Positions 5,851 through 37,623 of a DNA stretch of 40,594 bases are shown piece by piece (position 1 is the first letter of the stretch; each line of letters begins with the position of its first letter). The notes below the pieces were generated by a model. The model saw only the letters and a program-made list of their open reading frames with translations. It did no database searches and was not told where the DNA came from. The DNA lies in the IMG/VR virus record IMGVR_UViG_3300016464_000391, positions 1 to 40,594 of that record. One strand, 5' to 3'. Source of the DNA: a virus. Its lineage: Duplodnaviria > Caudoviricetes. The position numbers and the translations under genes are program-made.

Positions 5851-6370
5851 GAGCCTGGAATACAAGGACCTAGACGGGCTGATGAAGCCCACTATTCACG
5901 TGGACGAATTCAGCTCAAAAATGGGCGACGATGATGATATCATTACCTTGAGCTTTTTTGTGCGTGATAATCAAGCTGCCAAGGACTTGATGAACTGGTT
6001 TGAAAAGGGCTATGACTTTGTGTTGGACGCTGACAAATCACCAGGTGAAATCAAACCCAATCGTTATCTAGTGTATGTGGAAATGCGCAGACGCAGCACA
6101 GCTGGCGGCAACGTAGAACTGTTGCTGGACGATCTAGGCACACTGACAGAGTTTAAAAAAGACGACTGGACCATGCACTATCGTGACCAAGAGTATCCAT
6201 TCAGCCGCGATCAATTTGACAGTGTTGTTCCATTGAGCCCAAAAGAATATCGCAAGCGTTTTGAGTCAGAAATGAACGAAATGCGTGTGGCAGCAGGCTT
6301 GCCCACTAAACAGATCTACGAGCGTGACAACGCTATCAAAGCAATTCAAAGCGCAGCAGGAATTATCTAA
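5801..6370 (+). CDS. Hypothetical phage protein
   Basis: 189-aa ORF; TAATG overlap with the next gene. Confidence 0.75.
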   Translation: MSNNSNNPKLLPFPLFESLEYKDLDGLMKPTIHVDEFSSKMGDDDDIITLSFFVRDNQAAKDLMNWFEKGYDFVLDADKSPGEIKPNRYLVYVEMRRRSTAGGNVELLLDDLGTLTEFKKDDWTMHYRDQEYPFSRDQFDSVVPLSPKEYRKRFESEMNEMRVAAGLPTKQIYERDNAIKAIQSAAGII

Positions 6371-7188
6371 TGCGAGCTCAAGAGTTTGTCACTGAAAAGT
6401 GGAGCACCAAATACAAGCGCAGTATTGATTGCTCACACCCAAAAGGGTTTAGCCAACGTGCTCATTGTGCCGGACGCCGAAAGAATGAAGATCTAGTAGA
6501 GTTTGCAATTGACAAGCCCAGTGACGGCGACGGACGTAGCAAACTAATTGGTTCTATCATGCGCTTGCTTCAAGCAGGCAACAGAGTGGATTTTTTTGTA
6601 CCCGGCATACGTGGACATGTTGTAGGTTCAGGTGGCAACGGGGATTGGCTAACTCTAAAGCGTTGGAAAAAGCCCTACAGCAAAGTCAATTACTCGTTGG
6701 CATTAGATGCCAGCGACGACAATCGTTTTGCTCTAAAAATGATCAACCCTGATTATTATCAAGTTGTTGAAAAAGATCAATTAAACGAATTTGCACCCGG
6801 TGCAGATGACAACAGAGAAAATGATCCTGAAGATGTGTTGTTCCGCTTTGCTAAAATGTGGTATTCCGCACCGGATGTGGCCACACAGCAGCGAGTAGAA
6901 CAAGCACTGGCCAAAATCGGCTGGGAAATCGGCGAGCTGGAATCGGAAGAAGGCGGTGCGTTTGTTATGCGTATCGGCGACGAAGATGGCGATAGCTATA
7001 TTGGCTGGAGTGAAGAACAGCTAGCTGATCAATTAAACGAACTCACATTCAAAGGTTCGCCTTGCACCAAGGACTGCTCGGGACATCGTGCAGGCTACGA
7101 GTGGAGCCGTAGAAAAGGCGGCGTAGACGCTGCTAGCTGGAGTCGCAGCTTCAACAACGGTGCTGCATTATTTAAAAATGGCTACTAA
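6370..7188 (+). CDS. Putative virion-internal modular protein with capsid-targeting-like N-terminus
   Basis: Starts MRAQEFVTE (cf. T4 internal-protein CTS MKTYQEFIAE); segments separated by KNE/LVE, QLNE and QLNE. Confidence 0.65.
   Translation: MRAQEFVTEKWSTKYKRSIDCSHPKGFSQRAHCAGRRKNEDLVEFAIDKPSDGDGRSKLIGSIMRLLQAGNRVDFFVPGIRGHVVGSGGNGDWLTLKRWKKPYSKVNYSLALDASDDNRFALKMINPDYYQVVEKDQLNEFAPGADDNRENDPEDVLFRFAKMWYSAPDVATQQRVEQALAKIGWEIGELESEEGGAFVMRIGDEDGDSYIGWSEEQLADQLNELTFKGSPCTKDCSGHRAGYEWSRRKGGVDAASWSRSFNNGAALFKNGY
6775..7041 (+). repeat. Exact 15-nt direct repeat GATCAATTAAACGAA (6775-6789 and 7027-7041), period 252 nt, in frame
   Basis: Read directly; both copies encode DQLNE. Confidence 0.9.
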
Positions 7189-7209
7189 AACTCCATAAGT
7201 AATTTCGCA

Positions 7210-7863
7210 ATGAAATTAAAGAGTTTTGGGTGCAGTTTCATTTTTGGAACTGACCTACACGATGACAGCCGCTTGGCTGTCAAAGCAACCCCCAGCAACC
7301 ACACATGGCCTGCACTGTTGGCTAAAAAGAACGGTTGGGATTATACCTGCTATGCTCGCCCGGGCGCAGGCAATTTAGAAATAACAGAACGCTTGCTAAG
7401 TCAGTTAACTGATGTAGAGCCTGCTGTGTATGTCATTGGCTGGACCTGGATTGATAGATTTAGCTACATCGGCGACAATGATTCCTGGTGGAAAAGCCCC
7501 TGGAAAACAGTAATGCCCATTGACTCAGACGCTCCTGCTGAAACATATTACAAACATTATCATAGCGAATTACGGGACAAATTAACTACATTGATCAATG
7601 TTAAGACTGCAATTGATTCTTTAAAGTCGTCAGGAAATCGCTTTATAATGACTTATATGGACGAACTGATGTTTGACACACGATGGAACACCACACCGGC
7701 TATATCCGCACTGCAAGGCTACTGCGAACCCTATATGACTCGTTTTGAAAATCGATCATTTTTAGAATATTCCAAAGAAAAAGGGTTTGAGATTAGTCAA
7801 ACCCTGCATCCCTTAGAAGCGGCACATGAGTCAGCCGCTAAATTAGTTTATAACTTAGTGTAA
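7210..7863 (+). CDS. SGNH-like protein (distant paralog of 4573..5253)
   Basis: FGCSFIFG, ARPGAGN, IGWT..R, C-terminal TLHP...H pattern shared with the 4573 ORF; TAAGTA 8 nt upstream. Confidence 0.6.
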   Translation: MKLKSFGCSFIFGTDLHDDSRLAVKATPSNHTWPALLAKKNGWDYTCYARPGAGNLEITERLLSQLTDVEPAVYVIGWTWIDRFSYIGDNDSWWKSPWKTVMPIDSDAPAETYYKHYHSELRDKLTTLINVKTAIDSLKSSGNRFIMTYMDELMFDTRWNTTPAISALQGYCEPYMTRFENRSFLEYSKEKGFEISQTLHPLEAAHESAAKLVYNLV

Positions 7864-8582
7864 ACAAAATAAAGACGTCCTAATTCAGTGGGCTCTTTTT
7901 TAAATTCATCCAGTCTCAAATTGTATTTTTCTGCAAAATGATTTACAATTTCAAATGTCCAGGGAAAAATATCCACATAAGGGCCTGTCTTGTGCGGCAA
8001 CCCTGGATTGGCCCGTAAGAAAAATTTGCCGCCCTTTTTGAGCAAATCAACACAGTGACTGAATCTTTGTTCAATTTCGTCTTGGCTGTTGAAATTGATT
8101 GAGCCCAGGGCAATGATCACATCGTGTGATTCGGGCTTTACTCGGTAATCTAAAATATCCACTTCATAGTCAGCAGCATCATTGTAAGGATCAATGCCAA
8201 TGATGTTGTTGATACGCCCTTTAAAAGGATGATATCCACAGCCCACGTCCAAGACCTTTTCGGGATTTAATTTATTGACTTCTTCCACTAAAGCCCAGCC
8301 CGAGTGATCATACTCGCCTGTGCGTGGGCGCCATATTTCAGCAAAGAATCTATGTGTATAGCGCTCACTTAGATCTGTCACAATTTCCTTTAGGGTGCCG
8401 CGATACTCGCAAGGCAGTGCAAGCTCTGCTTCCACAGCATCTTTGAACTTTGAGTAACGTGCAGGCGTCCAGGGCAGTTGATCTACCACTGTGTCAGCGT
8501 TGATTGTTAAGTTCTGATACTTGGGTAATTTAAATGCTTCTTGCAAATTTTTTGTTAGTAATGCAAAAATTTTAGTGTTCAT
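7848..8582 (-). CDS. Class I SAM-dependent methyltransferase with small N-terminal helical domain
   Basis: Motif I VLDVGCG, GIDP, DVIIALGS, LKKGGKF; start trimmed to ATG 8582 (MNTKIF). Confidence 0.85.
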   Translation of the reverse strand: MNTKIFALLTKNLQEAFKLPKYQNLTINADTVVDQLPWTPARYSKFKDAVEAELALPCEYRGTLKEIVTDLSERYTHRFFAEIWRPRTGEYDHSGWALVEEVNKLNPEKVLDVGCGYHPFKGRINNIIGIDPYNDAADYEVDILDYRVKPESHDVIIALGSINFNSQDEIEQRFSHCVDLLKKGGKFFLRANPGLPHKTGPYVDIFPWTFEIVNHFAEKYNLRLDEFKKEPTELGRLYFVYTKL

Positions 8583-8655
8583 GATAAAAATTTTTCCTTT
8601 TGATAAAATTTTGATATATACTTCAGAATTTCTAATACTATTTAAGGAGAACAAC

Positions 8656-9621
8656 ATGTATAGAAAAATTTTTGCTGCGGCAGCAGCACTAGCGATGTCA
8701 GGAGCTATGGCATTTACCCCACCTAAAGTGGTCAACGTAACCGTGGGCTATGCCCCGGGGTCGGGCAACGAAACCAGCTTCCGCGGCGTTGCTGCCATTG
8801 TGGAACGAGCCAATCCCAACATCAACTTTGTGGTGACCAATCGTCCCGGTGCAGACGAAGTAGTAGCACTGAATCAGTTTATGAAACTGCCCGGTGACGG
8901 CGCTAACTTGTATATCACCAGCCAGCAAGGTGTGTTTACCACCATTGAGCAGTGGTACCCGGACCAAATCAAGTTTAATCCACTGGACATGGAATTGGTC
9001 ACAACCATTGCCAAATCACCCTTGGCAGTGATTGCCAATGTAAACTCGCCCACAAACACTCCCCAAGAGCTGTTGGCCCGACTAAAGAACACCGACCGGC
9101 CCATTACGTTTGGCTTAGGCGCTGGCGCACACAAGCTGGTGTTTGAATACTTAATGGACAAGGGTCAAGGCAATGCTCAGCAAGTGCGAGCCATTATGTA
9201 TCGTGGCCCTGCACAAGCAGCACAAGACGTGGCAGGAAATCAAGTTGAATTTGGCATCATGCCCACTGCTGTTGCTTACGGGCTTTACAAAGCAGGCAAA
9301 ATCAAATACATTGCTCTAGCAAGTGAATTCAAAATGACAGCTTTGCCCGACGTTCCATTGTGGAAAGACTCGGGCATGCCGGGCTTGAATATCTACGGCG
9401 CTTGGATGATTGCACTTCCGCCTGGCACGCCACGAGAAGTAGTTAAGTATTATCAAGACTTGTTTGTGCCTGCTATTCGCAGCGCCGAAGCAAAGTCATT
9501 TTTTGATCAAAATCTAATGTTTGCCGTGCCTGCAGAACAAAGTCCCGAAGGTGCTAGAAAGTTTATCATGAACATTCGCGAACAGTGGATTCCTTATGTA
9601 AAGAAAATGAAATTGGATTAA
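8656..9621 (+). CDS. Bug/TctC-family tripartite tricarboxylate transporter substrate-binding protein
   Basis: Signal peptide; VGYAPGSG, VTNRPGA, YRGPAQAAQDVAGNQV, LPDVP, PPGTP motifs; AAGGAG SD before ATG 8656. Confidence 0.9.
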   Translation: MYRKIFAAAAALAMSGAMAFTPPKVVNVTVGYAPGSGNETSFRGVAAIVERANPNINFVVTNRPGADEVVALNQFMKLPGDGANLYITSQQGVFTTIEQWYPDQIKFNPLDMELVTTIAKSPLAVIANVNSPTNTPQELLARLKNTDRPITFGLGAGAHKLVFEYLMDKGQGNAQQVRAIMYRGPAQAAQDVAGNQVEFGIMPTAVAYGLYKAGKIKYIALASEFKMTALPDVPLWKDSGMPGLNIYGAWMIALPPGTPREVVKYYQDLFVPAIRSAEAKSFFDQNLMFAVPAEQSPEGARKFIMNIREQWIPYVKKMKLD

Positions 9622-10889: not shown

Positions 10890-10893
10890 TAGC

Positions 10894-12527: not shown

Positions 12528-12529
12528 AC

Positions 12530-13144: not shown

Positions 13145-13148
13145 TTGA

Positions 13149-13610
13149 ATGTGGCTACTGCATTTCTTTTCTGACGGTTTCATTGCTTTCATAGTTCATG
13201 CTGTGCTGGTCACAGGCATTGTGGGCTGTGTGTTGACCTTTGCAGTGTTGAACCGTGTGCTGCGTTTGTGGCCCATGCTGGCGCCGTACTATCGTGCTGC
13301 ACAGGCCATCAGCGTTGTGTTCTTGGTCAGCGGCATTTATCTAGAAGGCGGCTACTCAACAGAGCTGGCCTGGCGCGAACGTGTGCGTGAAATGCAAGCA
13401 CGAGTGGCCCAGGCTGAACAACAGTCAAAAGAAGCCAATGCAGCCCTGGACCAAAAAGGTCAAGAAAAGACAAAAATAATTCGCGAAAAAGGTCAGATAA
13501 TTAAACAGTATGTGGACCGTGAAGTCACACGCTATGATAACTCCTGTGTTATTCCCGAACCTGTGGTACGAGCCCACAACGCCGCTGCAAAGAATGAGGC
13601 CGTGAAATGA
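13149..13610 (+). CDS. Inner-membrane spanin (Rz-like)
   Basis: N-terminal TM segments, coiled-coil periplasmic region, C-terminal Cys (SCVIP); directly after the endolysin. Confidence 0.7.
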   Translation: MWLLHFFSDGFIAFIVHAVLVTGIVGCVLTFAVLNRVLRLWPMLAPYYRAAQAISVVFLVSGIYLEGGYSTELAWRERVREMQARVAQAEQQSKEANAALDQKGQEKTKIIREKGQIIKQYVDREVTRYDNSCVIPEPVVRAHNAAAKNEAVK

Positions 13611-13954
13611 GATACAGAGAAATACTAGAAGCCTGCTGGGACGGTTATCGTCGTGTGCCCGGCACAAAGGTCAACACTCCTGGTAGCTGTGAAAAAATCA
13701 GCGAAGCAGAGCTGGAAGAAGATCTGCGCAAGTGGTTCCGAGAAAAGTGGGTACGGTTTGGTCCTGACGGAAAGATTCGCGGCGCCTGCGCCAGAGGTTC
13801 AGACAAAGAAGGCAAGCCCAAGTGTTTGCCACAAAGCAAAGCACATAGTCTAGGTAAAAAAGGTCGTAAATACGCTGCGGCCAAAAAGCGCAGAGAAGAC
13901 CCCAATCCAGAAAGAAAAGGAGCGGCCATCAACGTGGCCACTAAAAAGAAATGA
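13607..13954 (+). CDS. Small basic modular protein with CTS-like start
   Basis: MRYREILE / ACWDGY...ISE / ELEE / DLRKWF...; very Lys/Arg rich. Confidence 0.7.
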   Translation: MRYREILEACWDGYRRVPGTKVNTPGSCEKISEAELEEDLRKWFREKWVRFGPDGKIRGACARGSDKEGKPKCLPQSKAHSLGKKGRKYAAAKKRREDPNPERKGAAINVATKKK

Positions 13955-14442
13955 GATATCAAGAATTCGACAAACCAGCAAAGTGCTCTGAGTGCGGTGG
14001 TCCTTCATTTAGTAATTTAGTGTTGGCAGAAAAACAAGACGCTTGCTATCACAAAGTAAAAAGTCGCTACAAGGTATGGCCGTCGGCCTATGCGTCTGGC
14101 GCACTGGTGCAGTGTCGTAAAAAAGGTGCTGCCAACTGGGGCAACAAGTCAAAGAACGAAAGCGTGGCGGAGGGCCTGGATCGATTATATCCATTTGAAC
14201 GCACGGTGATAGATTATATGCAGGACAACAGTTGGCTCAGTGCTGAACGTGCCTACTTCCGTTACCTGGCTTTACAAAAGAAAAAACAAACAAACCCCCA
14301 TCGTTGGGCAGAAGAAATTCAGCATTTCATTGATTTGTATAACAAGTACAAAGGGCCACAAGGTGTGGCGGAAAGCAGAGACATGTGCAATGTGTGCGGC
14401 CAAACTCCTTGCAACTGCACACACATTTCAAAGGATCGTTAA
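13951..14442 (+). CDS. Modular protein with CTS-like start and an internal VAE-flanked cassette
   Basis: MRYQEF..., LAE / KQDACYHKVK..., SVAE / 63-aa insert / GVAE, C-terminal CxxC-x4-CxC. Confidence 0.7.
   Translation: MRYQEFDKPAKCSECGGPSFSNLVLAEKQDACYHKVKSRYKVWPSAYASGALVQCRKKGAANWGNKSKNESVAEGLDRLYPFERTVIDYMQDNSWLSAERAYFRYLALQKKKQTNPHRWAEEIQHFIDLYNKYKGPQGVAESRDMCNVCGQTPCNCTHISKDR
14161..14376 (+). repeat. Direct repeat GTGGCGGA (14164 and 14365), period 201 nt; motif recurs near 27035, 34862 and 35573
   Basis: AGCGTGGCGGAGGGC, GGTGTGGCGGAAAGC, AGTGTGGCGGAAGAT, GGTGTAGCGGAAGGC, AGTGTGGCAGAAGAA; all read [S/G]VAE in frame. Confidence 0.75.
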
Positions 14443-14754
14443 ATGACCCAAGACAACCGTGAACAAGGACATCGCAGCACTGTGATCACTATAGGCATTA
14501 TTTTAATGTTTGTGTTGGCCATGTGTGCTGGTTGTTCTACAGTTGTTCCTGTCACTGCAAAATTTCCTGAGCCACCACGCCTGGCGCAGGGCACTTGCCC
14601 ACAACTACAAACAGTGCCCGACGGTGTGAAACTCAGTGAATTGACCAACACTGTGACAGCAAACTACGGCACCTACTACGAGTGCGCCGTTCGAGTAGAT
14701 CAATGGCAGGAATGGTATGGGATACAGAAAAAGATATTTGAAAGTGTGAAATGA
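14443..14754 (+). CDS. Outer-membrane spanin lipoprotein (Rz1-like)
   Basis: Hydrophobic signal, lipobox CAGC, Pro-rich FPEPP..CP segment, C-terminal NY..YYEC. Confidence 0.75.
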   Translation: MTQDNREQGHRSTVITIGIILMFVLAMCAGCSTVVPVTAKFPEPPRLAQGTCPQLQTVPDGVKLSELTNTVTANYGTYYECAVRVDQWQEWYGIQKKIFESVK

Positions 14755-15623
14755 GAGCCGGTGAATTCATCTCAGAAAGTCTCAGCCGTGTGGCCTATCA
14801 TTACACTGGATTAGCTGCGGCAAATAAGATTTTGCAAAGTGGTGAATTTCAGCTGAGTTCTGCGCCAGGCTCAATAGAACAACAGTATGCTCCTCCTGGC
14901 AAGCCTTACTTTTTAAGCACCACAAGAACTTTAACCGGTGGTTATCACCAAGGTTCGAAATGGCGTGGTGTGATATTCAACTTGGATGGCAACTGGTTCA
15001 ATCAACGTTACAAGAGTGGACCCATAGACTACTGGGGCAATCGAGGTTCAGGCATGCGAGATTCAGAAGCAGAAGATCGTGTATACAGTGCAGAGCCCAC
15101 TATTCCCACGGGTGGGGTAACTGCTGTGCATGTGTTTGTGGCTGGTGACCAACCTGATGATGAAAACCTACAGGCCAATCGTGCTGTGGCACGTCAAGTG
15201 CTGATTGCTGCCAAGACTCGGAGTATCCCTGCTTATTATTATGACAATCACGATGCCTGGCTGCGTCAAGACACACGGCGCACAGCATCGGTCGCACAGT
15301 TAACCGGAAAGAAATCCAACAGTTATTATCGTGGCATGCGACGTAGAACTTACATGCACAACTGGTTGGAGTTAATGGGCGCAACAGCACAGAATCAATT
15401 GTCAAAAGATGCAGATAAAACTCGCTACAATTTAAACTATGACTATGATCGAGACGCAGCAGCCAAGAGCCTAGAAGTAGACATGGCCAATGCTAGAAAG
15501 CCCGACTCGGGACCCGAACGCGATGCAGCAGTAAAAATCATACGCTACATGAATCAGCATAAATTAAACACAATAAGACAATTTGTAGATCATATTGCTG
15601 CTAAATGGAAAAACATTCAATAA
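14751..15623 (+). CDS. Putative ADP-ribosyltransferase-fold protein with CTS-like start
   Basis: MRAGEFISE, then AYHYT (strand 1), FLSTT (S-T-T strand) and EAEDR (ExE) in ART order. Confidence 0.5.
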   Translation: MRAGEFISESLSRVAYHYTGLAAANKILQSGEFQLSSAPGSIEQQYAPPGKPYFLSTTRTLTGGYHQGSKWRGVIFNLDGNWFNQRYKSGPIDYWGNRGSGMRDSEAEDRVYSAEPTIPTGGVTAVHVFVAGDQPDDENLQANRAVARQVLIAAKTRSIPAYYYDNHDAWLRQDTRRTASVAQLTGKKSNSYYRGMRRRTYMHNWLELMGATAQNQLSKDADKTRYNLNYDYDRDAAAKSLEVDMANARKPDSGPERDAAVKIIRYMNQHKLNTIRQFVDHIAAKWKNIQ

Positions 15624-24234: not shown

Positions 24235-25233
24235 ATGAAGCAAGTTGTCATCATGCCCGGCGGGTTTCACCCATTTCATGCGGGCCATTACGCATTATAC
24301 AAACAGGCACAAGATGCATTTCCCGGTGCAGACGTTTACGTTGCTGCAACCAACGACACATCAACTCGTCCATTTCCCTTTGCGTTAAAAGAAAAACTTG
24401 CCAAACTAGCTGGTGTCAATCCTGGCAAATTTATACAAGTTAAATCACCATTCCGTGCAATGGAAATTGTTGGGAACATGGATCCCGCAGACACACAGTT
24501 AATCTTTGTTCGCTCTACCAAAGACGCAGACAAACCACCACAAGCAGGTGGAGTTAAAAAAGATGGACAACCTGCGTATCTACAGCTATTAAAAGGGCAG
24601 TCAGAACTTGCCCCAATGGCACAACATGCTTACATGGCTTACTTGCCCACAGTGGAGTTTGGCCCTGGCATGACGTCTGCTACAGAGATTCGCACAGCTT
24701 GGCCTACACTAAACGAAAAACGCAAGACAGCTCTTGTAATGAGCTTGTATCCTAAGACGCAAAAGAATCCCGCACTTGCTGCCAACGTTGTTAAAATGTT
24801 GGACACAGCAATTGGCGGGGAAGAACTAAACGAGTTTGCACCTGGTGGCAATTCTGCTTCAAGCTATTACGCTGTTACTGCAAACTTTGTCAATGAGTTT
24901 GCTCAGCAAAAACAAGAAGAACTACAGGATCTAATAGATGCTGGATGGACCAAGCAAGACTTGGAACAAGCCGGCACACTAGCAGGTCAAGCAGCAGACA
25001 TAGCACACTTTAAAAAAGTCCGCGATGCTTTCTTAAAAGGACTAAAACCAGGATTTGACCGATACCTTCGCGGTGACACACAGATGAAAGATCAATTGGG
25101 TGCATACTGGCTGGACAATGATTTACCGTTGAACCAAGACTGGGAATCAATCTACAGCGAACCCTGGGGCGACGATAGCGAATTTAACGAAGGTATAGCA
25201 GAAGACTACATTTCAGAAAAAATCAGCCGCTGA
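24235..25233 (+). CDS. HxGH (cytidylyltransferase-like) nucleotidyltransferase with an appended LNE/FAPG module
   Basis: PGGFHPFHAGH and SATEIR motifs, then EELNE/FAPGG...FNEGIAE/DYISE; TAAATA 6 nt upstream. Confidence 0.8.
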   Translation: MKQVVIMPGGFHPFHAGHYALYKQAQDAFPGADVYVAATNDTSTRPFPFALKEKLAKLAGVNPGKFIQVKSPFRAMEIVGNMDPADTQLIFVRSTKDADKPPQAGGVKKDGQPAYLQLLKGQSELAPMAQHAYMAYLPTVEFGPGMTSATEIRTAWPTLNEKRKTALVMSLYPKTQKNPALAANVVKMLDTAIGGEELNEFAPGGNSASSYYAVTANFVNEFAQQKQEELQDLIDAGWTKQDLEQAGTLAGQAADIAHFKKVRDAFLKGLKPGFDRYLRGDTQMKDQLGAYWLDNDLPLNQDWESIYSEPWGDDSEFNEGIAEDYISEKISR

Positions 25234-26240: not shown

Positions 26241-26281
26241 ACATAGACAATAAATACAATTTGATATTCTGAAATAGCCTT

Positions 26282-29200
26282 ATGAACATACTGGAACTTG
26301 ACTCTTATAACCTTGCTGACGCTGTGAAATTCAATGATCAGCTGAACCCACGCATTTGGCAAGGTCAAAACATGCGTCCCGAAGTGCGTGAAAAGCTGCT
26401 GGCGATTGCTGCTGACTTCAAAGAGTTCTTGGGCTTGTCAGATCTAGAAGTCAAAGACATCACAGTAAGTGGTTCAAATGCTGCTTACACATATACCCCA
26501 CAGTCGGATATTGACCTGCACCTAGTGGTTGATATTCCACGTGCTGATTCTGACGAAGTCTATCGTGAGTTGTTTGATGCCAAGAAGTATCAATACAACG
26601 ACATGCACAACATCAAAATTGGCGGCTACGACGTTGAACTCTATGTAGAAAACGCCAACAAGCCTCCAGTGAGCCAAGGTGTGTTTTCAGTGATGAACGA
26701 TGACTGGATCAACATTCCACGCCAAAGAAAAGCCACAGTAGACGACGATGCTGTTCGCAGCAAATATGAAGATATCAAACACAGAATTGATGCTGCTATA
26801 GACAGCAATGACATTGAAAAAGTCAACACACTGGCCAAAAAAATCAAAGCCTATCGCCAGGCTGGTCTTGATGCACACGGCGAGCTGGGGCCTGAAAATC
26901 TTGCCTACAAAATGTTGCGCAATCAAGGCTATATCGAAAAACTCTACAAGGCACGTGCCGATGCCAAAGATCGCGAACTCAGTTTGGCTGAACAAAATCG
27001 TGAGAAGAAGCCTGTTGTTTATGGATTCAAAAGTGTGGCGGAAGATGTTTCCAACACACCCGACGGTGTAAGTCCCAGCACCAAGATGTTCTTGAGTGAA
27101 AAGGATGTGCCCAATCATACTGAAATTATTTTTGACTTCATGCGTTTTGTAGTGCATGAATTAGAATTGCACAATGTTCCCAAACTAAAGATACGCAAAG
27201 ATCCACAGTGGAGTGTGATCAACAAGAGTTTTGGTCGCTACAGAGATGACCTAGGACAAATTGATTTGGCCACAGGCAATAGACATATCATGGATGTGTT
27301 GCGTACCTTGGCACACGAACTACAACATCGCAAACAAGACGAGCGTGAGCACATGCCACCCAATGCTGGAGAAACTGGCTCGCCCTACGAGAATGAAGCT
27401 CATGCGGTAGCCGGCGTGCTGATGCGTAAGTATGCTGACCTGCATCCTGAATACTTTGAAGATGTTCCTGTAAACGAAGCATCTGGTTATATTCCTACCC
27501 GAGCACAGGCCAAGGATCCACGTTTCAAGATGGCATTAACTGTTGATGTGCGTCCAGGTCAGACTGGCTGGGAAGCCAACAAGATGGCACTGAAAACCAA
27601 TAGCCAAGGCAAGCCTGCATTGTTGATCAAGTCGGCGAACATGATTGGTGAAGCAGCTAAATCCAAGAGCTATGGTTATGGCTCCACGCCACTGAGTCAA
27701 GTACCCGGCGAGCAAGAAGATGACCTAGGCAATCAAGAAGCCACAGGTCCTGAGTTTCCTCCCCAAATGCCAGCAGGTACAACCAAAATTGATGTCAGTG
27801 ATTTAACAGATTGGTATCGTCTGGGAATGGATATCTCAGACTTAGATGATGCCGATCCCGCAGACTACAACCAAGGTCCTCCACAGACAGTTATTGTGTT
27901 CCCTAGCGACGAAGCTGAACAAGGTTATCTCAAGCAGTTTAAACGCCTTGGATTGAAAACACACGACTTAGATCCCGATGTCGAAGGTGGCGAAGATGTC
28001 AAGGGCAAGCACTTGCACAAGGCCTTGGCCGAGGAATTACAATCATTCAAAGAACAAGACTTGTTTGAAATCAAAATGACCGGAAAGAACTTGGCCAAAC
28101 TAGCCAGCGACATCAAAGGTGTCAAAGTTGGCTTAGAGTTTGAAATGATTGTGCCCGATGCTACAGTTGAGGATGATGGCGACATGGAGCCTGACTACGA
28201 TCAAGATGAACGTGTGCGAGACATCGATGACGCCGTGGAGTTTTTTGATGACGGAGACTACAATGGTCGTGCAGACTTACGCAGACTCCGCGACGCCATG
28301 CAAGAAGCATACTGGGAATGGAAGTCAGAAAAACTTGATTATGATTGGTATAACGGCGACGGCTTTGACTATTTTAGAGAGTGGTTAGAAGGCAATGACC
28401 CGTTTGACGAAGAAGACGCCGAACAAGAAGCTCGCAATGAATTACAAGCACAGTATGGTGATGAACTCAGCGGCGAAGAATTTGACCAAATGCTGAATGC
28501 TTTGATTGATGAAAAGCGTGACGCCTATGTTCAAGAACAGTGGGATGATCAAAGTGGAAACTTTGATGATGCTAGACAAGAATATGAAGACGACCACAGA
28601 TACGACTATGACGAAAGCGACTGGCTTCGTGATCAAGGTATTACCTATGCGTCCGATGTTGAAAGCAATTTTGGCTATGTGACCTGGCCTTATTACAGAA
28701 GCAACAGCAGCGATGAAGAAGCTGACATTGAGCGTATTGCCCTAGAGTTTATGAATGACTCCGGCTTGCCTTATGACTCAGTGGCTGTGAGTTCTAGCTA
28801 CCACGGCAACTACAAAAAATGGGTAGGCAATGGCTGGGTTTCAGTTGGATCTGAAAAACCCGACGATTGCTTCTCAATTGAGCCCGACGGCAGTTTGGAT
28901 GGCAATAGCTCCAGTGATGTTGGCCTAGAATTTGTTAGCCCGCCTATTCCATTGGAACAAGTTGGCGATGTAATGGCCAAGGTTCAGCAGTGGGCAGCAG
29001 CCAATGGCGTCTATACTGGCAAGAACAACAAAACATCTATTCACACCAATATTTCAATTCCAGGATATTCAATTGAAAACTTAGATTACTTGAAAGCAGC
29101 ATTGTTGTTAGGTGACGAGTATGTGTTGCGTCAATTTGATCGCATTGGCAACACCTATGCCAAACCTGCCATTGAAAAAGTCAAGCAGATAGTAAATCAA

Positions 29201-31165
29201 AAGCCAGAAAAGGCACAAGAGCTGTTGGACAAGATGAAGTCGCAGCTCAACGCCGCTGCATCAAAATTGATCCACTCGGGAATTACAGACAAATTTACCA
29301 GTATCAACACCAAGGGCAATAGAATTGAATTCCGCTCACCCGGCGGCGACTATCTCAGCGACATTGCAGACAATCCCAAGAAAATGCAAGACACAATCAA
29401 TCGTATGGTTGTGGCCATGGATGCTGCCATGGATCCCAACAAGTATAAAGAAGAGTATCAAAAGAAACTCTACAAAGTCTTGACTAGTCAAACATTTGGC
29501 CGTGAAGCAAAAACTGGTGCCAAGCAGGAACCAAAGAAAGATACCGACGACTTGCTAAACATCTTTAGTCGTTACGCTGCAGGTGAATTGCCCAAAGCAG
29601 CACTAAAGAGTTTTGTTCGCCAAGCACAGACTGAGCGTAAACTTGCCAAAGGCGACATGGGCGGCGAAAAGTTCTGGTGGAATGTAAAATACAATGACCA
29701 ACGCATGGAAGTTGTTGCTACTAATAAGAAAGAAGCCAAAGAAGTTGCTGCCAAAGAGTGGGGACTGACCGCTGCACAAGCAGATACAATTACCAGCAAT
29801 GCTATTACTGTGTTGCGTCCCTATGATGATTCACCAATCAAAGCACAAGTGGGAGAACCCCAGCCAGTGGGCCCTAACCACAACTGGGCCATTAGACGTC
29901 GTGGCAGCGGAGAAATTGTTAGAACATTCTACGCAGATGATTATATGACTGCTCACCGTGTTCTCCAACAATACAAACTTGACCACAACATCACTGACGA
30001 CAGTTTGACCTACGGTCCTTACAATCGCGAGGATCAGCAGCCAGCACAACAACCACAAGCTCCGCAATACGAATTGTATAATCATGTCACAGATCAAGTG
30101 ATTGACACTTTCCCTGCACAAAACGATGAACAGGCACGAACACGATTACGAGACTATATCAACTACGGTGAAGGTCAATCTGCCCCTGGAGACTTTGCTG
30201 TTCGCCGTGCTCCTGTTCCTGGATCTACACTAGACCTACAACGCCAACGAGCAGCACAACAATCACAACAATCTGAGTATGCAATGTATCGTATCAGTGA
30301 TGGCCGTGATGTGTTGGCACCAGCTGGTAATCCTATTGTATTCCGTGCCGATAGTCCCGAAGACGCTGAAAGCAAGATTGCACGTTATGCCGCAGACTTT
30401 AACTTAGGTGCTCCTGAGTTGTTTGCTGTTCGTGCTGTGTTGAATGTTCCACAAGCACAACAATCTGCACAACCGAATCAAGGCAACTGGGGCATCTGGA
30501 TCAACGAACTCGGGAGATTTGCTAACCAGCCCGGCACATACGCAAGAGGTGCCGATGTACCATTGTATAGATTCCCAAGTCAGGCGGCTGCTGAATCTTG
30601 GTTAGAACAACAACGTGCTGAGCGTGTTGGCCTGCGAAGAGACATTGAAGTTCGTGAAATTGAACCCACAAGAACACCAGTAGCAGATATCGATCTGTTC
30701 CCTGACATGGACACAGACTTGGCTCGCGCTCGGGCTGCTGATGCAGCCCGAACTGAATACATAATCTTTAACATGAACGACCGCAGCCAACTCACAGGAT
30801 TTAGAGCGGCCAATCAAGCAGAGGCTGAAAGAGAAGCAGAATCTATCCTGCGAGATTTAAACTTAGATCCTGATCAGTATGATGTTCGCGAAAGAAATGC
30901 AAGACCAATAGGTTCACAAGGCGGAATCATCAACACTGCCAACGAACCCACCACAGGCAGTGAAGTAGGTCAGACATACAATCCGTCAGGCACAGGATCG
31001 TTTACTGGACAGTGGTTGGTGTTAGATCCAAACAACAGAGTAATTTATAGATTTGGTGGTGTAGGCAATTCACAAAGTGATGCCAACCGTATTGCCATGG
31101 CGTGGTTGCAACAGAATCCTCGCCAAATGGTAGATGGTGTCACTGTAGCACCGGAGATGGGCTAA
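26282..31165 (+). CDS. 1627-aa multidomain protein: Pol-beta-type nucleotidyltransferase, HExxH metallopeptidase-like domain, amidoligase (glutamine synthetase-fold) domain and C-terminal repeats
   Basis: GS...SDIDLH..VELY; LAHELQH...E; VGLEFE, IEPDGSL, LEFVSP, SIHTNIS, IEFRSPG; junctions at SVAE, LSE, VNE, LFE. Confidence 0.8.
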   Translation: MNILELDSYNLADAVKFNDQLNPRIWQGQNMRPEVREKLLAIAADFKEFLGLSDLEVKDITVSGSNAAYTYTPQSDIDLHLVVDIPRADSDEVYRELFDAKKYQYNDMHNIKIGGYDVELYVENANKPPVSQGVFSVMNDDWINIPRQRKATVDDDAVRSKYEDIKHRIDAAIDSNDIEKVNTLAKKIKAYRQAGLDAHGELGPENLAYKMLRNQGYIEKLYKARADAKDRELSLAEQNREKKPVVYGFKSVAEDVSNTPDGVSPSTKMFLSEKDVPNHTEIIFDFMRFVVHELELHNVPKLKIRKDPQWSVINKSFGRYRDDLGQIDLATGNRHIMDVLRTLAHELQHRKQDEREHMPPNAGETGSPYENEAHAVAGVLMRKYADLHPEYFEDVPVNEASGYIPTRAQAKDPRFKMALTVDVRPGQTGWEANKMALKTNSQGKPALLIKSANMIGEAAKSKSYGYGSTPLSQVPGEQEDDLGNQEATGPEFPPQMPAGTTKIDVSDLTDWYRLGMDISDLDDADPADYNQGPPQTVIVFPSDEAEQGYLKQFKRLGLKTHDLDPDVEGGEDVKGKHLHKALAEELQSFKEQDLFEIKMTGKNLAKLASDIKGVKVGLEFEMIVPDATVEDDGDMEPDYDQDERVRDIDDAVEFFDDGDYNGRADLRRLRDAMQEAYWEWKSEKLDYDWYNGDGFDYFREWLEGNDPFDEEDAEQEARNELQAQYGDELSGEEFDQMLNALIDEKRDAYVQEQWDDQSGNFDDARQEYEDDHRYDYDESDWLRDQGITYASDVESNFGYVTWPYYRSNSSDEEADIERIALEFMNDSGLPYDSVAVSSSYHGNYKKWVGNGWVSVGSEKPDDCFSIEPDGSLDGNSSSDVGLEFVSPPIPLEQVGDVMAKVQQWAAANGVYTGKNNKTSIHTNISIPGYSIENLDYLKAALLLGDEYVLRQFDRIGNTYAKPAIEKVKQIVNQKPEKAQELLDKMKSQLNAAASKLIHSGITDKFTSINTKGNRIEFRSPGGDYLSDIADNPKKMQDTINRMVVAMDAAMDPNKYKEEYQKKLYKVLTSQTFGREAKTGAKQEPKKDTDDLLNIFSRYAAGELPKAALKSFVRQAQTERKLAKGDMGGEKFWWNVKYNDQRMEVVATNKKEAKEVAAKEWGLTAAQADTITSNAITVLRPYDDSPIKAQVGEPQPVGPNHNWAIRRRGSGEIVRTFYADDYMTAHRVLQQYKLDHNITDDSLTYGPYNREDQQPAQQPQAPQYELYNHVTDQVIDTFPAQNDEQARTRLRDYINYGEGQSAPGDFAVRRAPVPGSTLDLQRQRAAQQSQQSEYAMYRISDGRDVLAPAGNPIVFRADSPEDAESKIARYAADFNLGAPELFAVRAVLNVPQAQQSAQPNQGNWGIWINELGRFANQPGTYARGADVPLYRFPSQAAAESWLEQQRAERVGLRRDIEVREIEPTRTPVADIDLFPDMDTDLARARAADAARTEYIIFNMNDRSQLTGFRAANQAEAEREAESILRDLNLDPDQYDVRERNARPIGSQGGIINTANEPTTGSEVGQTYNPSGTGSFTGQWLVLDPNNRVIYRFGGVGNSQSDANRIAMAWLQQNPRQMVDGVTVAPEMG

Positions 31166-31716
31166 TGCGAGCACAAGAGTTTATAAAAGAATCTGTAGAT
31201 GCTGACCAAGTGCTTGACTATGTAAAACGCACACATGCTCCTGATGAATTTGACATTGAATATTCTATTACTGATCATCCTCGGTGGGAGTTGAAGAACA
31301 TTCCCTTATCACAATTGAAACTGGATCCCGATGGTGAAGAGCGTGATCCTTACAACCGTGTGAACTGGGTTGATTATGATGTTGTCGACGAGTTGATGCC
31401 CAAGATTGCATCGGTATTAAAGGCCAAGCCCATTGTGGTTGACTCGCAAGGTTGGATCATCGACGGCAATCATCGTGCCACTGCCGCGGCAGAAGCAGGC
31501 CTAAAATCTGTGCCTGCGTATGTGCCTGCCAACGTAAATGAAAACTTCGCAGATGGCAAAGTCCGGGGCAAAAGCCGTCCAGGGCGTGTGAAACGTGCAG
31601 GTGCAAGTTGTGCAGGATCTGTCACAGACCTACGTGCCAAGGCTCGCAAATACGGTGGCGAGCGGGGCAAGATGTACCATTGGTGTGCTAATATGAAGGG
31701 CGGTAAGAAAAAATGA
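31165..31716 (+). CDS. CTS-like start, ParB/Srx-like domain and basic C-terminal peptide
   Basis: MRAQEFIKE; PIVV...IIDGNHR..AA; VNE / NFADGK...; ATG 31165 in a TAATG overlap. Confidence 0.75.
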   Translation: MRAQEFIKESVDADQVLDYVKRTHAPDEFDIEYSITDHPRWELKNIPLSQLKLDPDGEERDPYNRVNWVDYDVVDELMPKIASVLKAKPIVVDSQGWIIDGNHRATAAAEAGLKSVPAYVPANVNENFADGKVRGKSRPGRVKRAGASCAGSVTDLRAKARKYGGERGKMYHWCANMKGGKKK

Positions 31717-32308: not shown

Positions 32309-32348
32309 CCAATCCATCGCTGGGCGATTGTAATAGCTAAATATATCT

Positions 32349-32642: not shown

Positions 32643-32835
32643 AATTGTAGAATCAACAGGAGTAACCTGTGCAGGTAATATGGCAGTAGTAACGCAGCCT
32701 ATGGGCATGATCTCAAGATCAGGCGGGAACTTGATGTCAGGTAAATATACAACGGACCCTACGCCTAACACGCCAAGGGAATATAAAAGGAATAAAAATG
32801 CTCGCGGACAGTTTAAAAACTCTATTGGCAACTGA
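32629..32835 (+). CDS. Small protein with CTS-like start
   Basis: MRWREIVE / STG...; overlaps both neighbours. Confidence 0.55.
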   Translation: MRWREIVESTGVTCAGNMAVVTQPMGMISRSGGNLMSGKYTTDPTPNTPREYKRNKNARGQFKNSIGN

Positions 32836-33241: not shown

Positions 33242-33242
33242 T

Positions 33243-34115
33243 ATGAGTGATTCAATGCATGACATCGTCAAACGACTGGCCATCCTGGAAGGGCGTATTA
33301 CACCTGCAGAACCGCAGGGTAGTCAAAACCCACAGCAAAAGTCAGTGCATCAACTGCCTGCGCTGTTCAAGCCCGGCAAGGGCGGCCCTATATTAGGCGG
33401 CAATCCCAACAAGCCTGCTGTGACCAAAGGCTATTTTGTTGGTGCTGAGTCTGAAGAGCGGGACGAAGAGGCCCTAGAAGAAGCACAGGCCAACGAAGAA
33501 AAGTTGTTGGACAAAGTCAAGAAAAGTTTTATTGACTACTTGGATTCAGTAGAAGATACTGTTGCTAAAAAGAAGGATCGAGATATTGGGGACCGTCCTG
33601 CTGCTCGAGACATTGGTAAAAAAGCCAAGGATCGTGATTTGATGTCCAATGCCGACGAACTCGAAGAAGAACAACTTGATGAGTTTTTACCAGCACTGGG
33701 CGCTATTGCTGGAAGAGCACTAGTTAGTGCAGAAGCCGGAGCACTAACTCGCGGATTAGCTGGCGCAGCTGGTCATGCTGTAGGGTCGGCTGCACAAGAT
33801 GCATTGGCTGCATCTGATGACGAAATCAATGAGGATCCCACACAGTCCGAACCCGCACCAGATACACCAGCAGCACAGATACAAGAACCCACTTATGCTG
33901 CTCAACCCAGTGCGCCGATCAAAACAATTACACTAGAAGATGGTCGCATCTGTGAAATTCACGGCGATGAACACACAGGATTTGAAATTCGTCACGGCAA
34001 TAGAAAGTTGCCCAGTCGCTTTAGAAATTTAGACCATGCCACTATGGCCATGGAAATGTACCAAGCACGTTGCAAAACACAAGATCTGTCCGCAGACTAC
34101 GTTGACGAAGCCTAA
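33243..34115 (+). CDS. Acidic modular protein, probably virion-internal
   Basis: Repeated ILE/LEE/LDE/INE junctions; ends DYVDEA. Confidence 0.7.
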   Translation: MSDSMHDIVKRLAILEGRITPAEPQGSQNPQQKSVHQLPALFKPGKGGPILGGNPNKPAVTKGYFVGAESEERDEEALEEAQANEEKLLDKVKKSFIDYLDSVEDTVAKKKDRDIGDRPAARDIGKKAKDRDLMSNADELEEEQLDEFLPALGAIAGRALVSAEAGALTRGLAGAAGHAVGSAAQDALAASDDEINEDPTQSEPAPDTPAAQIQEPTYAAQPSAPIKTITLEDGRICEIHGDEHTGFEIRHGNRKLPSRFRNLDHATMAMEMYQARCKTQDLSADYVDEA

Positions 34116-34129
34116 GAAAGAATTTACAC

Positions 34130-37048
34130 ATGCTATTCACACAACTATTTGAATCAGACTTCGATGGCAAAAAGCCATTGTCCGAAACACATGACGACTA
34201 CGAAGATTGCAGCTATTGCAGCGGCACAGGCGAAGGTCGGTATGAAGGTCAAAGTTGCTCACACTGCGGTGGGTCAGGTGTGGAACCTGCGGAACAAGAC
34301 GATGATGATTTTGACATGCCCGATGATGACTATGTAGATTCAGGTGATGAAGAAAGCTACTATGAAAAGAGTTTGCGCAGCAGAGGTCTAGGCGAAGGCC
34401 AAGGCGACTTCGAAAAAGCACTAGATACACTAAGCGGAAGTTATAGTGGATGGTATCCCGACGAACAGCAATCCGACCCAGATGTCAAAACTTATTGGTA
34501 TGATGACGGCGAAGGCGGTTATTATGCCAGCGGCAATATTGAACAAAATCTACGCACCGGAGAGATCACAGTTGACTTTGAAGATAAAGATGGATACCAC
34601 GGCGGAGATGTTCAAGGCACATTTGCCAACATGGGCGCAGCCATGCGAGCATTACGAGGTGGTCCCGGAAGTCACGGCGGCCGGGCACCTAACTACGACA
34701 GATTGGCACAACGCACACAGTATGGCCCAGATGACTTGCGTAAGACAGACCGAACTGGTCGCAAGGGCACAGTAAGCGGCGGATTTGCCAATGCTCGCAA
34801 AGCATCAATACAACACAGTTTAGGAAAACACGGCCCCAAGGGCGTGTTGCCAGAGTCGGGTGTAGCGGAAGGCATCTTTGGTTCTAAACAAAGCCCTGCA
34901 TTGCCAGTGGTCAATAAAATTGCCAGTGTGGCCAGCAAACTCAATGCACAGAATGTTGATGCTGGTCGTCAGATTATTCAAAGCCATGCTGCTGAACTAG
35001 AACGTATGTTGAATCCACAAGCCAAGACTGGTGTTGATGTGATTGAGCAAGACATAGCAGAAGCAGGTGCAAATACAAAAAGTTTCAGATCAGGTTATAG
35101 CAAGCGCAAAGATACAAAGCCGTTGAGTCCAGAAGAGCAAGCTGCCAAAGACAAAGCCAAATCTGACAAGTGGTTAGAAAAAGAACGTGCCAAGATGGCT
35201 GCTAAAAAAAGTATGGCGAAAAACTTAGACGAATTTGCCCCAGGTCGGTCAGGCGACAGCGGCAACTATTTTCAAGAGTTGGCCAGAGCTTGGTATAACG
35301 GAGTTTATGATTCAGGTAGCTTACAAAAAGGTATCAAAACCAATCAAGACATTGAACGTTTGTTGCAACGTGGTGTTGTGGCACCAGATGGAAAAACACG
35401 CAAATACAACATTGACTACAACTCAGACTTTGATGGTGTGATTATATTCAGTGATGACTATTATGAGCACGGTGACGAAAATGATGCCGGTCAAGACATA
35501 GATATTCGAACCGGTCAAGTCTGGGGACCATATGACTACATGGTGTTTAGTCACGACGAACTCAGTGAAAGTGTGGCAGAAGAAGTAAAACTACCTTATC
35601 CAGTGCGTTCAGAAAAACTGGGTCGTGCCAACATGGAACTGTTGATTCGTGCCTACAACGAGCCCACCGGCCCGAGAACTACACTGAGTTTTGGCAATCG
35701 TATTCTTGAACTAGATCGCGACGACGTTGAAGCCATTGCACAATACTACGACAATGTGTTAAGAGACGACAATGCACGTTGGAATTTTATCACAGGTATC
35801 ATGAGTGACCCCGACGGGTTAACAGATACACTGGTCAAGCTAGGTCGAAGAAAAACTCAAGCTGTTCGTCAGCCAGGTTTGTTTCAAGAAGCAGATAAAA
35901 AAAAAGAAGATGATATTGAACCGCAGGTAAAAGATGTAGCTCTACAACGAGCTATAACTCGCGCCAAGGCTGATTTTCCCACAGCTGGCACAGGCATTGA
36001 GGCTCTAGCCAAAGATTTCATGCGCAGTCAAGATCAAGACCAAAAATCGTTTGATCAAATCCGTCAGGCAGAGCGCCAGCAAAGCCAAATATTAAACCAA
36101 ATTAACAAAATTGATCAAGAACAAGAAAAAGAAATCAAAGATCTTGAGTCACAAAATTCAGGCTTGGCCAGTCGGTTACAACAATTGCAATCAGTGAACA
36201 GTCGACTTGAAAAGAAGTTGGCTGCAATGAGTGGACGCAAGGCCAAGACTAAAGACGTAGAACCTATGCCAGTGTCGTTTGCATCATCTGGCACCCCAGA
36301 GCCAGTGGTCAAAGGCCAGCCACAGAAGAAAAAACCTGCTAAAGCTGCCAAGAGCAAGGCTTCTAAGATTACTAAACCTTCTGCACCTGCACAAATCGCT
36401 CGAACAGAACCAACCCAACCAAGTGCTATATCAAGCATGACAAGGCAATTGACAACACAGCACCCAGATGTTTTAGAACCAGCGGCAGATTTTGTTAGAG
36501 GTGCGGCACCGAGATTTAGCACAGTTGGAGCACAAGATGTTGTTCCAAGAACTCCTAGACAAGTTTCATCACAAGCTGCCCAAGATATTTCAAAAGGTCG
36601 TATGGCAGACATGACAGGATCTGCACCTGCTTACACATCTGCAGATACTGATGAATTACGAAAAATACAGCAAGATCAAATGGCTATGAGAGAAGATAAC
36701 AAAGAATCTAAACCTGAGCGACCTGAAGCAGATTATGGCGATGAATATCAGGCCATGGTCCAGCGTGTGGGACAAAAGGCCAAACAAGGTCCACGCAAAA
36801 CTGTGTGGGATCCTGTAAAGAGAGTGTATAAAACTGTGCCAGTGAATCCAGTCAAAGAACAAGAGCCAGGAAATCGTGCCGGATACAATGCTATCAAAAG
36901 CGTAAACGACTGGGCAGAAAAATTGCGAACCATGCAAGAGCTACAAAAAGATGTTAAACTCATGGCAGATCCAGAAGCCCGAACCGCAGTCCAGCAACGC
37001 ATAGGCGAATTGTTAAAGTTTGGTATTCAGCAAGGCTATACAAAGTGA
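34130..37048 (+). CDS. 972-aa modular protein with CTS-like start, DnaJ-type Zn finger and coiled coil
   Basis: MLFTQLFE; CSYCSGTG...CSHCGGSG; junctions LGE, GVAE, IAE, LDE/FAPG, SVAE, FQE, MRE, VKE. Confidence 0.8.
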   Translation: MLFTQLFESDFDGKKPLSETHDDYEDCSYCSGTGEGRYEGQSCSHCGGSGVEPAEQDDDDFDMPDDDYVDSGDEESYYEKSLRSRGLGEGQGDFEKALDTLSGSYSGWYPDEQQSDPDVKTYWYDDGEGGYYASGNIEQNLRTGEITVDFEDKDGYHGGDVQGTFANMGAAMRALRGGPGSHGGRAPNYDRLAQRTQYGPDDLRKTDRTGRKGTVSGGFANARKASIQHSLGKHGPKGVLPESGVAEGIFGSKQSPALPVVNKIASVASKLNAQNVDAGRQIIQSHAAELERMLNPQAKTGVDVIEQDIAEAGANTKSFRSGYSKRKDTKPLSPEEQAAKDKAKSDKWLEKERAKMAAKKSMAKNLDEFAPGRSGDSGNYFQELARAWYNGVYDSGSLQKGIKTNQDIERLLQRGVVAPDGKTRKYNIDYNSDFDGVIIFSDDYYEHGDENDAGQDIDIRTGQVWGPYDYMVFSHDELSESVAEEVKLPYPVRSEKLGRANMELLIRAYNEPTGPRTTLSFGNRILELDRDDVEAIAQYYDNVLRDDNARWNFITGIMSDPDGLTDTLVKLGRRKTQAVRQPGLFQEADKKKEDDIEPQVKDVALQRAITRAKADFPTAGTGIEALAKDFMRSQDQDQKSFDQIRQAERQQSQILNQINKIDQEQEKEIKDLESQNSGLASRLQQLQSVNSRLEKKLAAMSGRKAKTKDVEPMPVSFASSGTPEPVVKGQPQKKKPAKAAKSKASKITKPSAPAQIARTEPTQPSAISSMTRQLTTQHPDVLEPAADFVRGAAPRFSTVGAQDVVPRTPRQVSSQAAQDISKGRMADMTGSAPAYTSADTDELRKIQQDQMAMREDNKESKPERPEADYGDEYQAMVQRVGQKAKQGPRKTVWDPVKRVYKTVPVNPVKEQEPGNRAGYNAIKSVNDWAEKLRTMQELQKDVKLMADPEARTAVQQRIGELLKFGIQQGYTK

Positions 37049-37623
37049 TACTCAACGAACTTTATGCACTGGAAGAGTCAAGTGGATACAGTCTTCAAGG
37101 CAGTTTCACACATGACTTGACTACAAGTAAAGTTTGGCTCATACAAGAATTAGCACGGATCAAACCTACGATCACTACATTGTATATTTTGGGTTCATGG
37201 TATGGTAATCTAGCACTTTATATGACCCTCGATCCAGAAGTAAAAGTTAAAAAATTTATCAACGTAGAAACTGATCAAAGCATGCTGGATCAAAGCAAAC
37301 GCATGTTGGATCATGTGGGTGCTCGCAATATTGAATACATGTTCAAAGACGCTAATGACTTGGACTATCGTCAATTGGGAATGGATGGTGCAGTGATCAA
37401 TACCAGTTTGACTGACATAGACGGTGAAGATTGGTTTCGTAACATACCCGATGGCACATTGGTAGTAATGCAGGCCAGAGATCACGATCCCGGCTATCAA
37501 TACCACAGCACTGATGACATACTCCAAAAGTTTCCGTTGAGTCAGGTCATGTATCAAGGCAAATTAAAATTAAAAGATCCTGAAACACATTATCATAGAT
37601 TCATGGTAATAGGACGCAGATGA
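37045..37623 (+). CDS. Class I SAM-dependent methyltransferase-like protein with CTS-like start
   Basis: MILNELYALEE; ILGSWYG (motif I variant), NVETD, DAN, VINTS. Confidence 0.65.
   Translation: MILNELYALEESSGYSLQGSFTHDLTTSKVWLIQELARIKPTITTLYILGSWYGNLALYMTLDPEVKVKKFINVETDQSMLDQSKRMLDHVGARNIEYMFKDANDLDYRQLGMDGAVINTSLTDIDGEDWFRNIPDGTLVVMQARDHDPGYQYHSTDDILQKFPLSQVMYQGKLKLKDPETHYHRFMVIGRR

Follow-up and report, generated by a model that had tools for sequence, protein, structure and literature searches.

Evidence for in-frame exchange of modules at glutamate joints, candidate head-protease sites, in carrier genes of T4-like jumbo phages

Carrier genes in a fragment of an uncultured jumbo phage

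The window, that is, the whole stretch of 40,594 nucleotides analysed here (G000), is a 40.6-kb virus fragment with nearly all of its genes on the plus strand, and it is part of an uncultured, T4-like freshwater jumbo phage. Read runs that contain it come from freshwater or aquatic metagenomes, with no RNA runs among those listed, and no tRNAs were found in the window. Two window genes match virion proteins in PHROG and have cultured homologs in Atu_ph07 and PA5oct-like jumbo phages, and related records reach sizes of 300–374 kb. The head operon of record G004 is of T4 type, with portal, protease, scaffold and capsid genes, of which the portal and scaffold were named from position and likeness; its capsid protein matches T4 gp23 with an E of 2e-39 and the capsids of PA5oct/Paride-like phages at 65%. 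Host-like genes at 819–4442, 19502–22607, 32798–33241 and 37620–39317 are, from their sequence motifs, presumably clamp-loader-like, radical SAM, PhoH, DnaJ, ClpA, desaturase-like and ClpP genes, and a ferritin/Dps gene is found among the host-like genes by Pfam. The order of PhoH, DnaJ and ClpA is common to the window and PA5oct, in which two virion genes are also kept; the corresponding place in PA5oct has no gene annotated as a carrier of the type described below, and a search for a cultured phage with such carriers found none.

Compared with their orthologs, eight window genes are, on the sequence evidence, mosaics in which some modules are kept and others replaced (Table 1). Gene 37045–37623, at the end of the range given in the earlier note, is colinear in relatives. 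Assembly chimerism was ruled out, as one contig from another study covers positions 6200–7928 with 0 differences; the mosaic is therefore no assembly artefact.

Table 1. Carrier genes, modules and joints in the window
Feature	Positions	Strand	Remark
Carrier gene, 272 aa; four modules (aa 10–44, 45–140, 141–224, 225–272) after targeting-like MRAQEFVTE	6370..7188	+	
Capsid-targeting-like leader with V-T-E end	6370..6396	+	Resembles T4 IPII/IPIII MKTYQEFIAE
15-bp direct repeat, copy 1, DQLNE	6775..6789	+	
Acidic FAPG module, 84 aa, mobile between carrier genes	6790..7041	+	
15-bp direct repeat, copy 2, DQLNE	7027..7041	+	DNA identity to L001 and L008 resumes at 7027
Carrier gene, 115 aa: MRYREILE leader, 30-aa module, basic 77-aa module after LEE (13712–13720)	13607..13954	+	
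Carrier gene, 163 aa, four modules	13951..14442	+	
VAE-family joint, partial repeat copy	14164..14172	+	
67-aa module flanked by two GTGGCGGA copies	14173..14373	+	
Full family repeat CAAGGTGTGGCGGAA, encodes QGVAE	14359..14373	+	
Single-domain gene with targeting-like leader MRAGEFISE and no internal joint	14751..15623	+	No family match
Cytidylyltransferase-like N-terminal domain and acidic FAPG-start module after LNE (24826–24834)	24235..25233	+	
Polyvalent-type protein, 1627 aa, with nucleotidyltransferase-like domain	26282..31165	+	
Carrier gene: MRAQEFIKE leader, ParB-like module (ParB hits), basic 57-aa module after VNE (31534–31542)	31165..31716	+	
Conserved 290-aa gene with optional ~50-aa module between LDE (33675) and INE (33825)	33243..34115	+	
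Carrier, 972 aa: MLFTQLFE leader, ~6 variable modules, conserved coiled-coil-like C-terminal part	34130..37048	+	

The joints of gene 34130 are LGE, GVAE (34859–34870), IAE, LDE/FAPG (35225) and SVAE (35570–35581), and those between the short modules of gene 26282 are LAE, SVAE (27035), LSE, VNE (27470) and IGE; beyond IGE, gene 26282 continues with a large domain and a repeat region that lacks bounding E motifs. FAPG follows LNE at 6781 and 24826 and LDE at 35225. The N-terminal domain of gene 24235 matches PF01467 at E 0.001, below the cut-off, and genes 24235 and 26282 have a weak T4-like leader or none.

Several further features of these genes were noted. Carriers 13607 and 13951 sit between Rz-like (13149) and Rz1-like (14443) spanin genes in a lysis cluster at 12530–14754 (PHROG), and in L081–L083 modules of these two carriers are found ~20 kb away, in another gene. 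The large domain of gene 26282 (28070–29500) has counterparts in L102 and L107 that match Amidoligase_2, the window copy itself scoring below threshold. Residues 1080–1627 of the same protein (29500–31165) form an array of short related domains with Gln/Pro-rich linkers between them, which differs among relatives without E motifs and represents a second, different kind of in-gene variation.

Repeats at the joints and exchange of modules among relatives

The earlier note had pointed to repetition of DNA, and not just of peptide, at several joints. Its GATCAATTAAACGAA pair is present as described, at 6775 and 7027, 252 bp apart and in frame (DQLNE) within gene 6370–7188; 100 shuffles gave 0 occurrences, and the chance of two DQLNE peptides sharing every codon is 0.02. 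For the GTGGCGGA family, said to occur five times, exact copies number only three (14164, 14365 and 27035), and five are reached by counting the one-mismatch variants at 34862 and 35573; shuffled sequences hold 0.73 exact copies on average, and 6 of 100 reach three. All five copies read V-A-E in frame within carrier genes, as had been claimed, and the 15-base family core is matched exactly only at 14359–14373, the other copies being 2–4 bases off. Across 40 window genes, Ala in VAE tripeptides is encoded by GCG in 4 of 8 cases versus 61 of 965 for all Ala codons (P 0.0009). As a rule for every joint, however, the DNA repeat fails: most window joints (LNE, LDE, VNE, LSE) share the peptide only. 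Codon use at LNE, LDE, LTE, VTE and LSE in related loci is near background, and a generic repeat finder run on the window did not rank the joints.

For the carriers, comparison with relatives did not reveal the colinearity that the earlier note had named as the contrary outcome; orthologs of the carriers are non-colinear, with modules gained, lost or replaced. Among 80 loci fetched via the gene neighbouring gene 6370, four contain its ortholog (L001, L002, L003 and L008), and all four keep the first and last modules and differ in the middle at Glu motifs. The ortholog of gene 24235 in L150 has other modules, those of gene 31165 in L085–L087 have a Nudix module instead of the ParB-like module, those of gene 33243 in L087 and L088 lack a stretch of ~50 aa, and those of gene 34130 range from 588 to 1442 aa with only subsets of modules in common. 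Moreover, the same module was found in different carriers, as predicted: the 84-aa FAPG module occurs in three carrier genes, its stretch at exactly 6773–7025 of the window having 84% DNA identity to part of the 34130-type gene of L085, and further copies lying in a 24235-type gene (L150) and in a third carrier (L152). As a separate observation, the place of gene 6370 holds no carrier in most of the 80 loci and different carrier genes in L047, L062, L064, L074 and L078, so that whole carriers also come and go.

The positions of the breakpoints were compared with the motifs in nine window genes. Of 62 match-end clusters, 25 lie within 5 aa of [LIVM]xE versus 9.3 expected (0 of 100000 simulations), which upholds the predicted placement at motifs; the other 37 lie farther off, and the repeat region of gene 26282 accounts for 12 of these. 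The C-terminal third of this gene is variable without E motifs, 2 of its 14 match ends being at one. In gene 24235, 29 match ends fall at aa 194, six residues upstream of the LNE site. As the motif is common (~2% of residues), many [LIVM]xE occurrences lie inside domains.

A second comparison started from the modules. For eight window modules, with starts set at the Glu sites of the window, 82 unrelated contexts were found upstream, and [LIVM]xE closes 72 of them, against a background of 1.9% per residue; 16 of the 72 are VAE, partly from motif-selected loci, and the count leaves out five modules with one context each and one with none. The basic module of gene 13607 has 14 unrelated upstream sequences, 13 of them ending in [LIVM]xE, and for the basic module of gene 31165 this holds for 18 of 18 unrelated contexts; in seven of the contexts of the eight modules, a leader is directly upstream. 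Because the [LIVM]xE contexts use 20-odd spellings, the constraint acts on the peptide.

Public contigs, compared over 6200–15700 only (variants in 24100–37700 come from the fetched loci alone), contributed four in-frame deletion or fusion alleles; these contigs belong to related phages at ≥85% likeness and not necessarily to this strain. One allele joins 14168 to 14378 in frame, without the 67-aa module between the two GTGGCGGA copies, and was seen in two runs from two studies; the other in-frame joints connect 6495 to 6787, a leader to 13717, and 6398 to 13733. For the module that the DQLNE repeats enclose, an empty allele was searched for and not found, and insertion with target duplication is therefore unsupported; the one close homolog found of the module upstream of the DQLNE copies runs on into another module. 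We conclude from these alignments that [LIVM]-x-E sites are where genes and phages acquire modules, lose them and pass them to one another, and that modules are very probably shuffled in frame at the joints among related phages.

The QGVAE joint as a DNA repeat and a crossover interval

QGVAE occurs 69 times in 2650 unique ORFs of loci retrieved by protein queries; 52 copies are spelled CAAGGTGTGGCGGAA, and the Ala codon is GCG in 94% of cases versus 7.5% overall in these ORFs. In loci fetched by anchor genes, 60 of 97 distinct GVAE contexts have one 12-base spelling versus 0.6% expected, in agreement with the earlier note, which had asked for the DNA motif to be set against codon usage; in other xVAE, GCG is found in 21 of 257. 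Where both flanks are unrelated, GVAE retains its single spelling in 43 of 69 cases, and each of 14 other motifs tested does so in 2–4 of 12–24. Each of the 88 repeat matches that fall within ORFs is read in the sense direction and in the coding frame, all 34 spacings between repeat copies are multiples of 3, and the QGVAE frame is the longest open one at 153 of 166 sites, the remainder looking like chance hits. A scan of viral contigs yielded 133 repeat loci from 6 of 64 parts, or ~1500 estimated in total. Near-exact copies number only 2–5 per genome, and the window has one perfect copy.

Partners and edges were studied in a set of 209 in-frame sites, which was not used for codon bias because most of its sites were selected by the exact 15-mer. 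Among modules seen at least twice, 26 of 27 on the left and 27 of 28 on the right have two or more partners, and in 39 and 24 allele pairs DNA identity falls from ~0.9 to ~0.3 no more than three bases from where the repeat ends. Allele pairs at QGVAE sites are 80–95% identical and never 100%, by which an assembly chimera at these sites was ruled out. As judged from the alignments, silent positions are fixed at the QGVAE joint, and the joint delimits the stretch in which crossover takes place. A second motif often comes within six residues after the repeat (QGVAE, then GSLNE-like), as in L230, L250, L252, L270, L279 and L287, so that two candidate cut sites stand in tandem. A host origin of the repeat was also considered and ruled out: ~570 repeat stretches are estimated in 596 Gb of cellular genomes versus ~280 by chance (uniform-base arithmetic), a frequency of about chance level, and all 80 cellular matches are single copy among the matches listed.

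The near-invariant spelling over many phages and the sharp edges of identity could be explained by a dedicated, sequence-specific recombinase of an unrecognised family, encoded by phage or host, for which the repeat would be the attachment core; the placement of 18 near matches in five genomes agrees with this, as each genome has all of its matches within one region and on a single strand. However, for the enzyme families searched, PF00589 (tyrosine recombinase) was matched by 0 of 5 near-complete relatives, as against 14 of 14 controls, and resolvase, reverse transcriptase and Cas1 were each found in 0 of 5 related large records (controls positive). The term integron-like, used in the earlier note, is unsupported because no integrase, resolvase, reverse transcriptase or Cas1 is found in the five related genomes. 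Furthermore, the repeat is direct and non-palindromic, without inverted arms as read from its logo; modules also move at joints with other DNA repeats or with none; and the motif is no repeat of cellular genomes. We consider a dedicated recombinase unlikely.

Selection alone offers another account, in which scattered illegitimate crossovers occur, in-frame joints with a cut site survive, and the fixed spelling has a role in translation or is a founder relic; the role could be a ribosome pause at the internal Shine-Dalgarno-like AAGGTG followed by a rare Ala codon. That most window joints are breakpoints without a DNA repeat fits this account, as do the presence in the repeat of AAGGTG and of the rare GCG codon. 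Yet the identity of otherwise unrelated alleles starts and stops at the same repeat on both sides, as a crossover inside the repeat predicts; a pause signal would be expected elsewhere too, and no other joint has a fixed spelling. Selection alone is accordingly improbable as the whole explanation.

Homologous recombination of the phages themselves would link these observations. In 124 carrier-like genes, site pairs with at least 12 identical bases comprise 48 GVAE-GVAE pairs versus 16 others, some of them tandem duplicates, and from these numbers the GVAE repeat is the dominant, though not the sole, exchange route. A RecA-like gene is present in 4 of 5 related records. Homology of 15–20 bp is short for RecA-type pairing. 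In T4-type phages, genes between repeats are excised and circularised, and recombination there needs <50 bp of homology (PMC2839356). The same process of excision and circularisation probably operates here within reading frames, and the identical DQLNE pair fits a circular module integrated through a single crossover. It is likely that RecA/UvsX-type pairing acts on 15–20 bp of homology such as CAAGGTGTGGCGGAA, perhaps via excised circles resembling those of PeSL cassettes; with frequent exchange, one repeat spelling would spread. Joints that have no DNA repeat would then reflect rarer crossovers, filtered by selection for the frame and an intact cut site.

Leaders, candidate cutting, cargo and known systems

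The carrier starts MRAQEFVTE, MRAQEFIKE, MRAGEFISE and MRYREILE are like MKTYQEFIAE of T4 IPII/IPIII and one residue shorter, a likeness only; targeting-like starts were found in 135 of 2650 ORFs of related loci. In T4, gp21 cuts after L/I-X-E (PMC9026906), and a leader of 10 residues is enough for the head to take up IPIII as well as foreign proteins (PMC9026906, PMC3012670). An S77 (gp21-type) protease is present in 5 of 9 related records and in 4 of 5 of those at least 90% complete; the gene is absent from the window and from the closest relative (62% complete), and one 99% complete relative gave no match. Core proteins of related records are rich in L/I/V-x-E, and a candidate site in the capsid protein lies, in the alignment, ~10 residues downstream from where mature T4 gp23 begins. 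Val at P3 of the V-x-E joints lies outside the L/I stated for T4; a related enzyme, that of SPN3US, is described with A-X-E specificity (PMC10052503). By analogy, the joints are probably cut sites of the head protease, and carriers would be packaged via their leaders.

The modules could also be shuffled with the joints serving as plain acidic linkers, the proteins remaining uncut and forming no head cargo, like ordinary polyvalent proteins. Carriers 24235 and 26282, which have no clear T4-like leader, would suit this possibility, and SPN3US is reported to leave 42 head proteins uncut (PMC10052503). Against it stand the invariant Glu and the hydrophobic residue two before it in unrelated contexts, as well as the modules placed directly after T4-like leaders, neither of which has another obvious cause; plain linkers appear very improbable. 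More probably, the leader would direct packaging, and cutting after Glu would free the modules as separate internal proteins.

As to cargo, 56 carriers were scanned (53 of the 69 GVAE-bearing ORFs and three others), and 30 have a Pfam match and 26 have none; the matches include Nudix, GNAT, dCMP deaminase, amidoligase, Tpt1-like, LysM and several DUFs. Modules in the window are of two kinds, short basic ones (net +5 to +17) and acidic ones (to −18). The FAPG module has a predicted compact fold of two helices and three strands (pLDDT 82), for which no structural match was found at E 0.001, all atlas hits being <0.8. T4 IPI is an anti-defence protein. For some modules a role as injected effectors is plausible from their sequences; the odds that some freed modules reach the host and act there in counter-defence or takeover seem to us about even, and many of the short basic ones may merely neutralise DNA within the head.

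Overall, the best explanation (probability roughly 0.68) is that modules are exchanged in frame at Glu joints by phage homologous recombination and that the joints are gp21-type cut sites. A short sequence that gives the frame, the homology for crossover and probably the cut site would enable a carrier to take up new cargo without its own promoter, ribosome site or leader, a concrete route for building and rebuilding polyvalent virion proteins. It would also supply a rule for splitting 'hypothetical proteins' into mature pieces, since ~170 distinct modules abut the repeat in the 209 sites, and the modules adjoining the repeat constitute a ready screening list for anti-defence activity. A further-reaching reading is that a widespread aquatic jumbo phage clade possesses an in-frame cassette system whose repeat is both a specific recombination target and a head-protease site, such that captured DNA becomes a packaged, cut and injected protein; this seems unlikely, and if true it would amount to a library in which uncharacterised effectors of anti-defence and takeover number in the hundreds.

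The separate parts of this arrangement are known, namely, leader loading with cutting at Glu, shuffling at repeats, multidomain virion proteins and swapping at a boundary, and their combination was not found in the literature searched. In particular, a coding repeat that is both a crossover core and a likely protease site was not found in open full-text literature; subscription papers and supplements (e.g. the alignments of PMC5512222) may describe such proteins. Among the closest known systems are T4 IPI–III and Alt (PMC9026906, PMC3012670), with which the carriers share a short N-terminal leader with a hydrophobic-x-Glu end, an S77 protease (here in 5 of 9 related records) and a conserved leader before highly variable cargo. 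However, T4 internal proteins, as described there, have one cargo per leader, whereas here several modules with internal motifs are chained per frame, and modules exchange at one of these motifs that is fixed as a DNA repeat.

PeSL cassettes of RB49 and phi1 (PMC2839356) resemble the present system in that repeats flank optional units, that recombination adds or removes units between repeat copies, and that neither has a known dedicated recombinase. PeSLs, by contrast, are ~100-bp intergenic promoter-terminator elements with a stem-loop repeat that move whole genes, and mini-circles were demonstrated for them (PMC2839356); the repeats here are 15–20 bp, sense-coding, intragenic and frame-keeping, and exchange is known from assembled contigs alone. 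An integron has attC-type inverted sites between whole genes, unlike the direct, intracoding repeat, and neither the reverse transcriptase nor the Cas1 of DGR- or CRISPR-like systems was found in the related records.

Polyvalent proteins (PMC5512222) are likewise large and variable, combine many domains and are presumed to undergo packaging and processing, and carriers, with several unrelated conflict-type domains per variable polypeptide, contain domain types of these proteins (PMC5512222, PMC7824862), including GNAT, Nudix, nucleotidyltransferase and ADP-ribosyltransferase-like domains. An embedded zincin-like peptidase is regarded as the main enzyme that processes them, and a repeated junction or DNA repeat is undescribed in the available parts of PMC5512222. 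Gene 26282 contains what looks like an HExxH-type motif, without a family match, and the other carriers have no such motif. The DPxGL boundary of Rhs polymorphic toxins is also a self-cleavage site. In these toxins, which have orphan C-terminal modules, homologous recombination exchanges variable modules where a conserved peptide marks the boundary (PMC3967940), as it probably does here. Rhs proteins, as reported there, are bacterial and exchange one terminal module through 522 bp of homology, together with immunity genes, whereas the carriers are phage proteins with internal arrays of modules that adjoin a repeat of ~15 bp.
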